From: Planctomycetota bacterium | GTDB taxonomy: Bacteria > Planctomycetota > UBA11346 | Assembly (NCBI GenBank): GCA_007693455.1 | Contig: REDP01000237.1 | Location: 1 to 48,858 of the forward strand | Direction of reading: 5' to 3' | DNA length: 48,858 bases | Shown: positions 14,820-48,410 of the stretch, piece by piece | How positions within the stretch are numbered: the first letter of the stretch is position 1 | How the letters are laid out: each line of letters opens with the position of its first letter | Translations under genes and position numbers: made by a program | Notes under the pieces: generated by a model | Seen by the model: only the letters and a program-made list of their open reading frames with translations | Database searches by the model: none | What the model was told of the DNA's origin: nothing

Positions 14820-15416
14820 ATGAGCTCGCAACCCAATTCATCCATCGCCCATGGCCTTGGCCTCCTCGCCCATATCGCCCTGGCGGGGAAGGCCGTAGGC
14901 TGTCGGCCACTGGCGCGCGAGGTGGGCATGAATGCCGTGCGCTGCAATCGTCTGCTGAAAAGCTTGGCTATGGCAGGCTACCTTGAACAAGATCAGCGCC
15001 GCCGCTACCGCCCAGGCCCAGCCTTTCAGGTGTTGGCGGCCGCAGCGCTCCATGGTTCGCCATTACTGCGTCAGGGCACGCCGCTCCTGCAGAAATTGGC
15101 GCTGGAAAGCGGATACACCGTAGCCCTGGGAATAGTTTGGGATACACGCGTGGTGTATCTGTGGCATGGGGGACAAGTCGGGGCCAGTGCACCCTACCCC
15201 GCAGAAGACTCCTCCATTGGCCGTCTTTTTGCCGACCCCAGCGCCCAGTCGGCAAGCGTCATTCATCACAACCATCGCTCACTGGCGGTGCCTCTTCCCG
15301 ACTCCAGCGCGATGGGCCTGGCTCTGACCCATATCCCCCTGGACGCAGCCCTTCCACCCCTGCGCCACCTTCTGCATCAATACGCCAAACGTTTCAGTGA
15401 GCTCAACCATGAATGA
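14820..15416 (+). CDS. IclR-family transcriptional regulator (short)
   Basis: NSSIAHGLGLL...LAREVGMNAVRCNRLLKSLAMAGYLEQD...RYRPGP; TVALGI..VVYL; SSIGR. Confidence 0.85.
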   Translation: MSSQPNSSIAHGLGLLAHIALAGKAVGCRPLAREVGMNAVRCNRLLKSLAMAGYLEQDQRRRYRPGPAFQVLAAAALHGSPLLRQGTPLLQKLALESGYTVALGIVWDTRVVYLWHGGQVGASAPYPAEDSSIGRLFADPSAQSASVIHHNHRSLAVPLPDSSAMGLALTHIPLDAALPPLRHLLHQYAKRFSELNHE

Positions 15417-17274
15417 ATCCCTCCGCTGCACCAGTGAACAGATCAGTGAAAACGCCTTTCCCCATGAACAGCATGACGCCGATGTCTGTGTGGTTGGCGG
15501 GGGCATGGCTGGCATCTGCGCCGCCTTGGCGGCGGCACGGGCCGGAGCGCGCACCGTTTTAATTCAGGATCGTTCCATGCTGGGCGGGAATGCCTCATCA
15601 GAAATCCGTATGTGGATCTGTGGGGCGCATGGACCCGATTACAAAGAGGGGGGGATTCTTGAGGAATTGCAATTAGCCAACATTCTTCACAACCCTGGCT
15701 TACAGTATTCCCTTTGGGACGCGGTGCTCTACGATGCAGTGCGTCGCTGCGATGGCCTACAGACCATCCTCTCGTGCACCGTATGCGGGGTTGCTATGGA
15801 CCAGGGCCGTCTGCAGTCCGTGCGCGCCTGGCACCTGACCCGCCAGTGCTGGATTACCGTTACCGCCCAGCAGTTTATCGACTGCTCGGGCGATAGCGTA
15901 CTGCGTGCAAGTGGGGCAGCCATGCGTCGGGGACGAGAGGGACGCGATGAATTTCAGGAAAGCCTTGCCCCCGAAAAGGCCGATCGCCAGACCATGGGGA
16001 ACTCTATTCTTTTGCAACTGCGCCGCAGTAACCCATCCCATCACCGCCCCTTTCGCGCCCCGCCCTGGGCTCGTGAGATTGCCCCCGATCATCCACGCTA
16101 TGCTCATCTTACCCCCAGTGGACATAATTTTTGGTGGCTCGAACTGGGTGGCCAGGACGATACCGTTGGCCAAGCCGATGCCATCCGCGATGAACTTATG
16201 GCCCTGGCCTTGGGAGTGTGGGCCACCATAAAAAATCATCCTGATGGGCGTGGCCATGGCTGGAAACTGGAATGGGTAGGAAGCCTCCCGGGCAAACGTG
16301 AGAGCTTTCGCTATGTGGGTGCTCATACCCTCACCGAGCACGAAGTGGCCAGTGGTGGCAATTTTCCCGATCGCATTGCCTACGGCGGCTGGAGCATGGA
16401 CGACCACCCCCCTGGCGGCTTTGATCATCGCGGCGACCCCACCCAATTCCATGCCGCCCCATCCCCTTACGGCATCCCTGCGGGAATCCTCTATAGTAGT
16501 CAGGTGCCCAATCTGTGGTGCGCCGGACGCAATATAAGCGCAACCCATATGGCCCTCTCCAGCACCCGCGTCATGGCCACCTGTGCCATGCTGGGACAGG
16601 CCGCTGGCAATGGCGCCGCCTTGGCGGTAGCGGCCGCATGTGATGCCGCCGAGGTTCATACCAAGCAGCTCCATCGCTGGCAAAATATCCTTATGGACAG
16701 CGATCAGTGGCTTCCAGGGTTTACCAAAGCCTTGCCTGGGCTCACCCAAACAGCCCAACTCTCCAGCAGTGCTTCTGATGAGTGCGAAGTCCTGCGCGAC
16801 GGCATCGAACGCCGCCTTGATGGCCATCGCCATGCCCTCGACTGCCAAGCAGGCGACTGGGTGGAGTTACGCTGGGATAGCCCCCAGGACCTGCAGCGCC
16901 TGCGCGTGGTGGGGGACAGTCAACTTCATCGCCCCAAGCGTATGCCTTGCTCGCGGCCCGATGACGATCATCACGAGGCCATGCCTGCCCCCCTCTGGCG
17001 TCATGCTCGTATTTGCATCCAGGAAGATCCGCAAGGGTCATGGCATACCATAGCCGAGATCTGCGATAATAGCCAGCGCTGCCGTATCGTTCCCCTGCGC
17101 AGGCGTGCCTGCGCCCTGCGCTTTCACATCCTTGCTGGGTGGACTGAAGAGGGACCCATACGCCTGCATGCTTTAGAAGTAGGCGAGCCAGACTGGGACC
17201 AGGCACCCCAGCCCTGCCCCTGGCCAGAGCCCTTCTACCAGCACGGCAAGCCAGGACGGGGACCAGCAGCCTAA
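15409..17274 (+). CDS. FAD-dependent oxidoreductase (FAD_oxidored-like) with C-terminal beta-sandwich domain
   Basis: DVCVVGGGMAGICAA, LGGNASSEIR, FIDCSGD, LPGKRES, GGWSMDDH, AGRNISATHMALSSTRVMATC; overlaps the IclR gene end. Confidence 0.9.
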   Translation: MNESLRCTSEQISENAFPHEQHDADVCVVGGGMAGICAALAAARAGARTVLIQDRSMLGGNASSEIRMWICGAHGPDYKEGGILEELQLANILHNPGLQYSLWDAVLYDAVRRCDGLQTILSCTVCGVAMDQGRLQSVRAWHLTRQCWITVTAQQFIDCSGDSVLRASGAAMRRGREGRDEFQESLAPEKADRQTMGNSILLQLRRSNPSHHRPFRAPPWAREIAPDHPRYAHLTPSGHNFWWLELGGQDDTVGQADAIRDELMALALGVWATIKNHPDGRGHGWKLEWVGSLPGKRESFRYVGAHTLTEHEVASGGNFPDRIAYGGWSMDDHPPGGFDHRGDPTQFHAAPSPYGIPAGILYSSQVPNLWCAGRNISATHMALSSTRVMATCAMLGQAAGNGAALAVAAACDAAEVHTKQLHRWQNILMDSDQWLPGFTKALPGLTQTAQLSSSASDECEVLRDGIERRLDGHRHALDCQAGDWVELRWDSPQDLQRLRVVGDSQLHRPKRMPCSRPDDDHHEAMPAPLWRHARICIQEDPQGSWHTIAEICDNSQRCRIVPLRRRACALRFHILAGWTEEGPIRLHALEVGEPDWDQAPQPCPWPEPFYQHGKPGRGPAA

Positions 17275-17296
17275 CGTTTGAGTAAAACGTCATCCG

Positions 17297-17643
17297 GAAA
17301 TTAGGGACCGAAGTTAGGGACACGAAGTTAGGGACTATCTTATAAAGTTAGGAAAGTTAGGGACAGGCTACCTTATTGCCCAACCCGATGAAGAAGTTAG
17401 GGACAGGCTATTTTATTGCCCCAAGCCGATGCCCTGCTCGCGCCGCCCGATGACGATCATCATCGCCTGTCCTTCTTTGGGTGCTCTGCTTGAGTTCGAG
17501 GGTTCGTTCCAGCAGCGAAGTTAGGGACAGGCGAAGTTAGGGGCTAACTTATTGCCCAACCCGATGCCCTGCTCGCGCTGCCCGATGACGATCATCACGA
17601 GATCAGCCCTTCGTACCTCTCTAGATCTAGCCTGTCCCTCTTT
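17297..17643 (+). repeat. Intergenic repeat cluster: eight AAGTTAGG(GACAGGCTA) copies, inverted GCCTGTCC partners and duplicated gene-derived segments
   Basis: Motif starts at 17297 (variant AAATTAGG), 17310, 17324, 17344, 17353, 17393, 17517 and 17533; inverted GCCTGTCCTTCTTT 17465-17478 and TAGCCTGTCCCTCTTT 17628-17643. Confidence 0.9.
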
Positions 17644-17818
17644 GAGCGAGTGAGATGAACGGTAGCGCAATGCATCATATGCATATAATGTAAGCATATA
17701 ATGCTGCGTGGGTGTCCTTATCGGCCTTTTCTCCTGGTTGTACGTCGCTGATTGCGCCTGTAGATGCCCTCACACCCGCGCTATCCATGCGTAAAGATTA
17801 TGGGTAAAAGACAATAGT

Positions 17819-17836
17819 ATCATTATGTATAATGAT
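17819..17836. promoter_or_regulatory. Perfect AT-rich palindrome upstream of the pnt operon, candidate operator overlapping TATAAT
   Basis: ATCATTAT-GT-ATAATGAT. Confidence 0.45.
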
Positions 17837-17923
17837 TAGGCGAAACCCATTGCCCCGTCAGCTCATAGCCCAGCCTACGCCACTCGTCACCACGACCTCC
17901 AACCCTCATCATAGGAGCGTGCT

Positions 17924-19087
17924 ATGCACATTGGCGTTGTTGCCCATGACGGCGGCGATCCCCGCCTTCCCATCTCCCCCACGAGCGTTGGCCAGCTCCT
18001 TGGCCTCGGCGCAAGCATCTCGATCCAATCGGGCATTGGCCAGCACTGCCAGTGGAGCGATGCCGACTGGTCGGCAGCTGGAGCGCAGGTAGAAAGCGAT
18101 CGGAGCGCCATCCTTGCTGGCGCTGATATGCTGGTAAGCGTTCGTCCACCCAGCATCGAGGATCTGCGGCAGCTGCGCCCAGGAAGCATCACCATAAGCT
18201 TCCTGGATCCCTTTAATCAACGCGATCTCATTGAGGCTGCTGCCAGCGCGCAAGTGTCCTGCTTGAGCCTGGAAATGGTGCCGCGCTCTACCATCGCTCA
18301 GAAAATGGATGCCCTCTCAAGCCAGCACTCCCTGGCGGGCTATTATATGGTTCTCTTGGCGGCTGAACGCCTGGATCGTATTCTGCCCATGATGACCACC
18401 CCATCGGGCACCTTGCAACCGGCACGGGTGTTTATTATCGGGGCTGGGGTGGCTGGCTTGCAGGCCATTGCTACCGCCAAGCGCCTTGGCGCCAGGGTCA
18501 CAGCATTCGACACCCGTCCTGAGGTGGCGGAGCAGGTAGAAAGCCTGGGGGGTCGTTTTCTCAACATTGACCTGGGACGAACAGGCTCCACCGAACAGGG
18601 CTACGCCACAGCATTAAGTGAGGAACAGCTCGCGGCCCAGCAGGCTGGGATGACCAAGGCCTGCGCTGAATCAGACATTGTGATCACCACCGCCCAGCTC
18701 TTTGGCCGTCCTGCCCCACAGGTCATCAGCCAGGACATGGTAAGCGCCATGCGTCCAGGCAGTATCATCATCGACTATGCCGTGTCGTCTGGCGGCAATG
18801 TGGCGGGATCGCGTGCGGATGAAGAAGTCGTGGTCGATGGGGTACGCATTATTGGCTTGAGCAACTATCCCGGACAAGTCGCCCACAGTGCGACCTTAAT
18901 GCTGGCCAATAATATCGCCCATATGATCCGCCACGGCTGGGATGAGGAAACCAAGACCTTCTCTCTCACAAAGGATGAGGAGACACTCTCCTCCTGCCTG
19001 ATCACCCATGCAGGAGAAGTGGTCAATCCAACTATTCGTGGTCATTACGGCCTCCCTACCCAAAAGCCCGAGGAGAGCATCGCATGA
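17924..19087 (+). CDS. pntA: NAD(P) transhydrogenase subunit alpha, part 1 (domain I)
   Basis: VPRSTIAQKMDALSSQ, IIGAGVAGLQAIATAKRLGA, DIVITTAQLFGRPAP; AGGAG RBS. Confidence 0.95.
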   Translation: MHIGVVAHDGGDPRLPISPTSVGQLLGLGASISIQSGIGQHCQWSDADWSAAGAQVESDRSAILAGADMLVSVRPPSIEDLRQLRPGSITISFLDPFNQRDLIEAAASAQVSCLSLEMVPRSTIAQKMDALSSQHSLAGYYMVLLAAERLDRILPMMTTPSGTLQPARVFIIGAGVAGLQAIATAKRLGARVTAFDTRPEVAEQVESLGGRFLNIDLGRTGSTEQGYATALSEEQLAAQQAGMTKACAESDIVITTAQLFGRPAPQVISQDMVSAMRPGSIIIDYAVSSGGNVAGSRADEEVVVDGVRIIGLSNYPGQVAHSATLMLANNIAHMIRHGWDEETKTFSLTKDEETLSSCLITHAGEVVNPTIRGHYGLPTQKPEESIA

Positions 19088-23167: not shown

Positions 23168-23428
23168 GATGACTCCACAACAAACGCTGGGGTGAACGAT
23201 ACGTACACTGACTCGACCGGTGATGTTCACAGGCCTCGGCCAGGGGCAAGGCCCAGCAACCACTCTCAAGACAGCCAGGGCAGCGTTCCCGCTCTTTTCC
23301 ATGGCAGGCTTTGCGTCGCGCTGAAATCTCGGTGTTGGCCCTAGCTTGTGTTTTTACAAAGGATGGCACTATACCCATCCTTCAAAGATATCGTCATTAC
23401 AACACTATACCGTCATAAGGAGCCACTC

Positions 23429-48334: not shown

Positions 48335-48410
48335 AAAAAAAAGGGGGACAGGCTAATATATCTCAGCCGCCGCGCACCCGAGACAGCAACGATAACAGGA
48401 TCGTCTGTCC
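48335..48410 (+). repeat. Isolated copy of the GGGACAGGCTA motif with a degenerate inverted partner
   Basis: AAAAAAAAGGGGGACAGGCTA 48335-48355; ATCGTCTGTCC 48400-48410 resembles ATCGCCTGTCC 17462-17472. Confidence 0.55.

Follow-up and report, generated by a model that had tools for sequence, protein, structure and literature searches.

Among the bacterial repeat systems nearest to the locus described here are REPINs, reportedly the subject of work by Bertels and Rainey in 2011. They occur as tens to hundreds of near-identical copies together with a single-copy RAYT gene (Bertels et al. 2017, PMC5581495). In TIRtrons, terminal inverted repeats (TIRs) with the common sequence GGGGWSAS enclose the gene of a RAYT-like tyrosine transposase, TIRYT, and TIR repeats form moderately abundant families found as single copies, dimers or clusters, the planctomycete R. 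baltica being among the rich genomes (Di Nocera, De Gregorio and Rocco 2013, PMC3733652). Ton-Hoang et al. (2012, PMC3333891) modelled the addition of BIME units as a cleavage, priming from the 3'-OH, a second cleavage and an attack on the Tyr-5'P bond, and it was proposed in the same paper that units of the REP/BIME type pick up flanking genes or gene fragments. In the classification of Quentin, Siguier, Chandler and Fichant (2018, PMC6006769) most TIRYTs belong to TnpA-Y1 subclass 2.1, and subclass 2.3 holds long, multi-domain, multi-copy proteins without REP-like structures, mainly from Chromatiales and Alteromonadales. Gene-fragment capture is described for Helitrons (PMC4778049), and IS91/ISCR elements are named for it in PMC3333891. 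At the level of titles and abstracts, the literature on RAYTs or REPINs together with capture describes no gene-derived REPIN or TIR cargo. Here we analysed a stretch of 48,858 nt (the window in what follows) from a Planctomycetota bacterium (assembly GCA_007693455.1, contig REDP01000237.1, positions 1 to 48,858 of the forward strand), in which the intergenic DNA behind an FAD-dependent oxidoreductase gene contains copies of a segment of that gene next to the 9-nt motif GGGACAGGC, the same motif that stands at the ends of a Y1/HUH transposase element of this genome. We read positions 17297-17644 as a terminal-repeat cluster of a TIRYT-type element in which a joint made by the enzyme at a look-alike site in the gene copied coding sequence, followed by local duplication, and we give this reading about even credence.

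Gene-derived copies behind the end motif

The oxidoreductase gene (15397-17274, forward strand) is an intact open reading frame of 625 amino acids that matches Pfam PF12831 (E 1.1e-77), and its ortholog in the same-genus genome G001 has 626 amino acids. The copied segment (16913-16977, forward strand) is native sequence of the gene, conserved as ordinary coding sequence in the orthologs of G001 and of two other genera (G023 and G011). When compared by BLAST with the whole 3.63-Mb assembly, positions 17400-17462 aligned with 16913-16973 (84.1% identity over 63 columns, E 6e-12) and positions 17555-17601 with 16933-16977 (87.2% over 47 columns, E 1e-8), with exact matches to the gene of 18 nt (17445-17462) and 22 nt (17580-17601, equal to 16956-16977). 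A likeness of this degree goes far beyond what chance would produce. The homology starts exactly at GGGACAG, with no similarity upstream of it, and the gapless alignment of GGGACAGTCAACTTCATCGCCCC in the gene with GGGACAGGCTATTTTATTGCCCC in the second copy has a score that was reached by 2 of 2000 shuffles. The first-pass annotation of this DNA, which had proposed that a repeat element captured a piece of the gene from behind a look-alike of its own end motif, thus placed the left border correctly, and the positions, letters, partial copy (17371-17390) and two long copies (17411-17462 and 17547-17601) that it gave agree with ours.

The two long copies differ from the gene by indels and by about 15% substitutions, and they are nearer to each other (95.3% over 43 nt; 91.2% over 57 nt) than to the gene. 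Both have a 2-nt insertion after CTCGCG, C in place of T in the gene, and CCG in place of GCGT. These common changes, the insertion together with two substitutions, point to a single copying event behind both long copies, as the earlier annotation had argued from the insertion and the T-to-C change. That annotation left the direction of copying undecided. The intergenic copies carry the version of the segment that is proper to their own genome (GCCCGATGACGATCATCACGAG here vs GCCCGCTGACGATCACCATGAG in G001), and therefore the gene was the source and the copying took place after the split from G001.

In G001 another gene comes after the oxidoreductase gene, and the repeats are all missing. The window has the transhydrogenase genes pntA and pntB next to the oxidoreductase gene (pntA-like frame at 17924-19087), so that synteny with G001 is broken directly after the oxidoreductase gene and the repeat cluster sits at a rearrangement point. 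The next gene of G001, seen when locus L002 (G001:C276, 2071-3570) was compared with window positions 17275-19087, is an open frame that encodes a GNPNAGKS P-loop. The window also has, some 220 nt ahead of the pntA-like gene, an AT-rich near-palindrome at 17673-17703 with the tandem words CATCATATGCATATAATG TAAGCATATAATG; it contains two TATAAT-like words and may be a promoter or operator region, although it was not called by a simple promoter scan.

All parts of the cluster lie on the forward strand. It begins with three units of the form GAA(A/G)TTAGGGAC, which end at GGGAC and lack AGGC (17297-17335, namely 17297-17308, 17310-17321 and 17324-17335), and words of this form stand ahead of the units as a run of seven in all (repeat family D4). 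Unit 1 (17353-17392) has the flank AAAGTTA, the motif GGGACAGGC at 17360-17368 and a truncated cargo at 17371-17390, with 25 nt that are 96% identical to 17542-17566. Unit 2 (17393-17479) has the flank GAAGTTA, the motif at 17400-17408, gene-derived cargo up to 17462 and the inverted motif GCCTGTCCT at 17465-17473, followed by TCTTTG. After a flank with the full motif and no cargo (GAAGTTAGGGACAGGC, 17517-17532) comes unit 3 (17533-17644), made up of GAAGTTAGGGGC, gene-derived cargo at 17545-17601 (with the 22 exact nucleotides), a 28-nt linker and the inverted motif GCCTGTCCC at 17630-17638, again followed by TCTTTG. The closing inverted motifs noted earlier at 17465 and 17628 are present, as GCCTGTCC(T) and as TAGCCTGTCCCT (17628-17639) respectively, the latter being complementary at 12 of 12 positions to both 17359-17370 and 17399-17410. 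The word GTTAGGGACAGGC occurs three times in the window vs 0.05 times expected from shuffles. Copy 2 runs almost straight into its inverted motif, and the 28 further nucleotides of copy 3 resemble the gene weakly (15 of 26 in register by our own count). The intergenic region 17275-17923 has no other significant match anywhere in the assembly, so that a genome-wide REP or MITE family of which the window unit would be a member was rejected.

The genome is a metagenome bin of 334 contigs and 3.63 Mb with 6% contamination, and apparent tandem copies might in principle have been made by strain variants or by the collapse of repeats during assembly. We compared the stretch with a separate set of contigs from a soda-lake metagenome run, a check that is not independent since this run is probably the source sample. 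One contig of 9039 nt covers 16800-17577 with two substitutions (17377 T>C and 17385 C>T), and its order of parts, from the gene through the stutter units and copies 1 and 2 into the start of copy 3, is that of the window, which confirms that these parts are contiguous; another contig covers 17548-17950. The runs X2 and X3 of the same study contain next to none of the stretch. A 79-nt contig of run X1 with a depth of 3.4 matches 17533-17577 with three differences and is preceded by 34 unrelated letters, and it probably comes from a strain or relative in which the unit follows other sequence. The fragmented and partly contaminated bin, the break between the separate contigs at 17548-17577 and the different sequence that this low-depth contig joins before 17533 are what an artefact would leave. 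The preserved order in the 9039-nt contig with only two substitutions, and a divergence from the gene (indels and about 15% substitutions) that exceeds what variants of one strain would show, make an artefact of assembly highly improbable.

The Y1/HUH transposase that shares the motif

The motif GGGACAGGC has 75 exact copies in the assembly (G000) vs a mean of 38 for 40 permuted words, and 45 of them lie in the intergenic DNA, which amounts to 12% of the genome as called with a rough home-made gene caller. Usually a run of A precedes (A/G)GGGACAGGC and an AT-rich stretch follows, as is the case for a solitary copy in the window (48345-48353, forward strand) that has no adjoining transposase gene. 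At 17 of the 45 intergenic sites a contig ends 70-340 nt ahead of the motif, and the contig ends near motifs all break within the start of one multi-copy Y1 gene. Exact motifs form convergent pairs within 300 nt at six loci. Units of about 120-145 nt bounded by GGGACAGGC and its inverse form a family of three copies with 78-85% identity (C60:6750-6894, C291:11947-12069 and C207:1071-1191), a small derivative of the same element family that is similar to a REPIN or MITE. A search for short exact motif pairs with a spacing of 30-90 nt in 48 genomes of the bacterial family gave one pair, in G005, situated inside a 656-codon open frame and without a flank match. The assembly also contains a different and far more abundant dispersed intergenic repeat of about 100 nt, on about 100 contigs (for example, C57:10540-10600 and C10) and absent from the window, with the core GCCGATCAGGAGATCGGC followed further on by GAGCTTTGAG; its core has 149 matches with at most two mismatches on both strands, and its 8-mers are the commonest in intergenic DNA.

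A RAYT or Y1 transposase gene flanked by the motif, which the first-pass annotation had suggested looking for outside the window, is present elsewhere in the genome with at least 14 starts, 13 at contig ends and one in a complete copy (C310:319-1434). The motif stands 52-55 nt upstream of the ATG at all 14 starts (12 exact GGGACAGGC and two GGGACACGC), and because the sequence further upstream is unrelated between the 14 copies, it marks the left boundary of the element. Six of these left ends read GGGGACAG and fit GGGGWSAS, and the remaining eight read AGGGACAG or AGGGACAC, which agree with it at 7 of 8 positions. On C310 the 12-nt inverted repeat ATGGGGACAGGC encloses the complete copy, at distances of 55 nt on the upstream and 202 nt on the downstream side of the gene. 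G001 has the same layout on its contigs C50 and C91, with GGGACAGGC at 23299 (forward) and 24565 (reverse) around the gene on C91. Also on C91 (locus L041), the last 169 nt of a Y1 element up to its right-end motif (1340-1509) recur with 100% identity at 1617-1785, 107 nt further on and running into the contig end, which is either a partial second element in tandem or an effect of assembly. In the relatives the motif upstream of the Y1 gene is GGGACAGGC (G001 and G010), AGGACAGGC (G005, G011 and G022), GGGACATGC (G021) or, as a 14-nt inverted repeat, ATGGACAGGTCATT (G016), and one Y1 locus of G023 has an unrelated inverted repeat.

The protein encoded on C310 has 371 amino acids, with the HUH stretch SNHLHLVV and the stretch YVDLNPIRAK, and the residues H65, H67, Y178, N182 and P183, as well as the stretch YVDLNP, are invariant in 36 aligned sequences. 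Its profile matches are below cut-off, Pfam Y1_Tnp giving 22.1 bits vs a gathering score of 23 (E 1.8e-4, residues 18-75 only) and NCBIfam REP_Tyr_transpos (NF047646) 36.6 bits vs a cut-off of 80 (E 3.6e-9, residues 126-192 only), and no solved structure was matched by a sequence search with the protein. Its AlphaFold model (pLDDT 86.2, pTM 0.87) had as top Foldseek match the structure of the E. coli REP-associated tyrosine transposase in complex with a REP hairpin (4er8_A; E 3.6e-4, probability 1.00, target-normalised TM 0.69), followed by the TnpA proteins of ISDra2, IS608 and IS200. Judging from these residues and from the modelled fold, the protein looks like an active enzyme. The family is very large, as 7994 of 8000 scored candidates pass E 0.001; one source labels some relatives 'REP element-mobilizing transposase RayT', and the nearest relatives with a name come from Planctomycetota genomes and are called 'transposase'. 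Among 24 genomes of the same bacterial family, 21 have the gene in several copies. Pairs of copies in this assembly have 95-99% identity, and with at least 14 copies, some of them near-identical, the gene behaves like an insertion sequence.

A fixed breakpoint, the proposed joint and its rivals

At many motif sites the front flank is duplicated together with GGGAC, and AGGC stands after the last copy only. On contig C105, for example, TAAATAGGGAC stands twice before AGGC, on C207 GGCTGGCTGGGGAC and then CGGCTGGCTGGGGAC precede AGGC, and C144 has another site of this kind. The same stutter is present in relatives, with aagtctaataaGGGAC twice and then AGGC in G001 (L037) and CGTCAGGAGTCATGGAC twice and then AGGT in G016 (L018), where it involves the genome's own motif. 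At 10 of the 45 intergenic motif sites the 11-mer ending at GGGAC is found again, with at most one mismatch, in the 70 nt upstream; the corresponding counts are 17 of 2961 for randomly chosen intergenic positions and 2 of 45 when the test is mirrored to the far side of the motif. These flank duplications place a breakpoint at GGGAC/AGGC (the slash marks the position), and we read the stutter as the footprint of a nick or joint at that position. The window, with its seven GAAGTTAGGGAC units, shows the stutter in its most extreme form. A second large array lies at C105:4790-4960 of G000, in the right-end region of a Y1 element whose gene has its 3' end at the contig end (5235-5378), with three full motifs and several TAAATAGGGAC stutter units.

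The source segment in the gene has look-alikes of both element ends at its borders. The word GGGGGACAG lies at 16911-16919, and the left-end look-alike GGGACAGTC (16913-16921, forward strand), which overlaps it, agrees with the motif at 8 of 9 positions, with a probable break after GGGAC, between 16917 and 16918. The right-end look-alike GCCTGCCCC (16983-16991, forward strand), which had escaped the earlier annotation, agrees at 8 of 9 positions with the inverted motif and begins 6 nt past the end of the exact homology between gene and copy. Both look-alikes are thus in inverted orientation, 61 nt apart, and bracket the segment. The G001 ortholog has the same amino acids at both places (VGDS at the left one), encoded by other codons that form no look-alikes. 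The assembly has 18 convergent look-alike pairs inside genes, a number below that for the control orientation (24), and intergenic copies exist for one of the 18, the pair of the oxidoreductase gene. Since only this one of the 18 pairs has copies, and these have their borders at the look-alikes, the coincidence is not one of chance. Reverse look-alikes number 527 in the 3.63 Mb, so that by our own arithmetic about 0.004 would be expected within 30 nt. The coincidence of borders fits a joint at GGGAC/A between the resident site and the gene.

The sequence of events that we propose is as follows. The enzyme, encoded elsewhere in the genome, would nick one strand at GGGAC/AGGC, and the freed 3'-OH end (terminating in GAAGTTAGGGAC) would be joined to another cleaved site or be extended as a primer. 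Repeated rounds at one site may have produced the seven GAAGTTAGGGAC units in a row. The partner in one of these rounds would have been the chance look-alike GGGAC/AGTC at 16917/16918, about 440 nt upstream in the neighbouring gene, and with the partner site inside the gene some 65-85 nt of coding sequence would be copied behind the motif, ending near GCCTGCCCC at 16983. The gene-derived unit would then have been duplicated locally together with its flank to give two long copies and a truncated one. The homology and its direction, the position of the junction at the motif, the association of the motif with the enzyme gene and the fixed end of the flank duplications are shown by the sequence; we infer both that the joints were made by the enzyme, rather than by the replication machinery alone, and the order of these events. 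The copies look like by-products without a function for the host, as the gene is intact and the locus looks harmless.

Several observations weigh against this reading. The gene-derived cargo is found at one locus only, with only the four sites of this locus matching a non-transposase gene among the 45 intergenic motif sites, and none of 40 motif sites (30 loci) in G001 has gene-derived cargo, with about 1.5 kb of flank covered. Matches to the flanks are not enriched in intergenic regions that have the motif (2 of 10 vs 77 of 822 for the others), one of the two matches being an unrelated repeat and most of the matches coming from the repeat family with the GCCGATCAGGAGATCGGC core. The right junction is unclear, as copies 2 and 3 end differently and the likeness of their tails to the right look-alike is marginal (scores reached by 841 of 2000 shuffles for copy 2 and by 105 of 2000 for copy 3). 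The predicted single-strand DNA folds of the units are no better than those of shuffles (z -0.74 and -1.19, the former for unit 2), although arms of 8-10 bp do pair, and no conserved hairpin adjoins the motif at the 14 left ends, whereas the Y1 enzymes with solved structures recognise hairpins. The join inside copy 3 (17548-17577) is not bridged by the separate contigs, which overlap by 30 nt only. Activity of the enzyme on these sites is predicted from sequence footprints, and the 7-nt microhomology at the junction is also expected from slippage or template switching without an enzyme. A general mechanism of motif-directed capture, as the first-pass annotation proposed, is not borne out by these counts (one locus among 45 sites, 0 of 40 in G001 and one of the 18 look-alike pairs), and the case appears to be a one-off.

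The microhomology leads to the explanation in which slippage, unequal exchange or microhomology-mediated template switching between the resident and the gene GGGACAG, about 440 nt apart, produced the copies, later deletions and slippage gave the mosaic and no transposase took part. A tandem duplication would predict the local flank that all the units carry, the case is single, and the direct repeats inside the cargo (CCCGATG twice) favour slippage. What such an origin leaves unexplained is that flank duplications end precisely at GGGAC (10 of 45 sites vs 0.6% of random intergenic positions), that the same stutter is found with a different motif variant in another genus, and that a second look-alike stands at the right end of the source segment, where about 0.004 would be expected within 30 nt. 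We therefore consider the enzyme-free origin a real but doubtful alternative.

The bracketing of the source segment by inverted 8/9 look-alikes of both ends, 61 nt apart, would also be expected under true transposition, in which the Y1 enzyme would have excised or copied this segment of the gene as a single-stranded unit that integrated at an intergenic GGGAC target in the manner of a REPIN or MITE, and the three-copy family on C60, C291 and C207 indicates that short motif-bounded units do spread. However, no copies are present in the assembly away from the source gene, intergenic copies are lacking for the 17 other look-alike pairs inside genes, and in copy 3 the homology stops 28 nt short of the inverted motif. 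The units moreover carry the locus-specific flank GAAGTTA, not expected on a transposed unit, from which it follows that they were multiplied in place and did not transpose. This explanation is accordingly unlikely, and the mobilised units of the earlier annotation are better described as local duplications. Its non-autonomous element survives as a cluster of HUH/Y1 element ends that contains a piece copied from the gene next to it. The class of the element has been described before, the copy is a local one-off, and the units were amplified in place.

The position of the cluster upstream of the pntA-like gene (17924-19087) and the sevenfold repetition of the motifs are compatible with a selected regulatory element, either an RNA that pairs with the oxidoreductase mRNA or titrates something from it, or GAAGTTAGGGAC units that serve as protein-binding sites controlling the downstream transhydrogenase genes. 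However, the same-genus genome lacks the region and has a different neighbour next to the gene. The copies are in direct orientation to the gene, so that a sense transcript would not form base pairs with its mRNA, and the motif is accounted for by the transposon. No promoter- or terminator-like sites were found in a scan of 17200-17960, and the three weak Rfam matches are all far below their gathering scores and give no usable sign of a known RNA family. A regulatory role thus seems very improbable.

Other candidates were rejected as well. The differences between gene and copies do not suggest a diversity-generating retroelement, as by inspection they include indels, are not confined to adenines and concern a segment that is not at the 3' end of the gene (no search for a reverse transcriptase was made). 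A sigma-54-like GGC-N7-TTGC arrangement in the units was considered by eye only and dropped, since TTGC does not recur at this distance in the other copies of the motif in the genome. The absence of homology beyond about 16996 speaks against a relic of a paralog, or a tandem copy, of the whole 3' part of the gene.

If the preferred reading of an enzyme-made joint is extended to the family, the TIRYT Y1/HUH enzyme would need little beyond a 9-nt word, cut at GGGAC/A and join or prime from any such site, look-alikes in genes included, and the family would be a bacterial counterpart of Helitron-style copying of gene fragments. We put this broader view forward tentatively, as possible rather than probable. 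Were it true, stutter arrays and the gene-derived unit would be natural footprints of the enzyme, and intergenic DNA would be seeded with pieces of coding sequence. What TIRYT and RAYT enzymes do in cells is little understood, and the models in print derive from in-vitro experiments on the E. coli enzyme. The locus and its relatives offer two natural footprints, the GGGAC/AGGC breakpoint at about one fifth of the intergenic motif sites and a gene look-alike that seems to have been used, and both provide concrete substrates for assays of cleavage and strand transfer: AAATAGGGACAGGCTAAAATA and the gene look-alikes, embedded in their surroundings as …GGGGGACAGTCAAC… and …GCCTGCCCCCCTCT…. With footprints of this kind, genome sequence alone may suffice to map, in a simple way, where uncharacterised Y1 enzymes cut.

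Comparison with described systems

The first-pass annotation had likened the units to REPINs, and there is a likeness in that two inverted repeats surround a short spacer, the unit is non-autonomous and a Y1 enzyme is encoded elsewhere. The label is not supported, however, since there are no palindromic REPs at the ends and several copies of the enzyme gene exist; TIRYT/TIRtron fits better (PMC3733652). The window unit has no copy outside its locus, and the largest short-unit family that we found has three copies.

With REPtrons and their TnpA-REP (RAYT) proteins the element shares the nearest fold (4er8), and the model of BIME addition fits the local amplification seen here. REPs are nevertheless hairpins with a GTAG tag, whereas GGGACAGGC is not self-complementary, has no GTAG and adjoins no conserved hairpin; the RAYT gene is single-copy and domesticated, whereas the gene here is multi-copy; and the protein has 165 amino acids there and 371 here, with an inserted domain and a long tail. 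Elements of the IS200/IS605 type have subterminal hairpins and no terminal inverted repeats, in contrast with the ends described here, which are inverted repeats without a conserved hairpin.

The protein has features of TnpA-Y1 class 2 (subclasses 2.1 and 2.3), with its Y---NP signature, its length, an insertion between the core elements, a long C-terminal tail and no REP-like structures beside the gene; for subclass 2.3 the comparison concerns the features described in the available part of PMC6006769, namely 371 amino acids, an insertion after the HUH strand, a long tail and multiple copies.

Helitrons and IS91/ISCR elements resemble the process that we propose in that an HUH enzyme uses a wrong or look-alike end and adjoining host sequence is carried along. 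Those enzymes are of the Y2 or rolling-circle type and move the captured piece to new places, whereas here the enzyme is of the Y1 type and the copy stayed beside its source. The pick-up of gene fragments from flanks has already been proposed for REP/BIME units, and capture by other HUH elements is well known. What is new at this locus is that the source gene has 8/9 look-alikes of both element ends, that the units were multiplied locally and took their flank along, and that the stutter has a fixed end at GGGAC; the look-alike pair and the fixed stutter are testable points.

Taking these comparisons together, the element matches the published TIRtron/TIRYT class. As in that class, a Y1/HUH protein with one catalytic Tyr and the RAYT-like Y---NP signature is encoded between terminal inverted repeats, without REP hairpins, GGGGACAG fits GGGGWSAS, and the 75 copies of the motif are single, paired or clustered. 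Stutter arrays made of flank plus GGGAC and gene-derived cargo are not described in the available part of PMC3733652, and the gene here differs by its IS-like occurrence in at least 14 copies.

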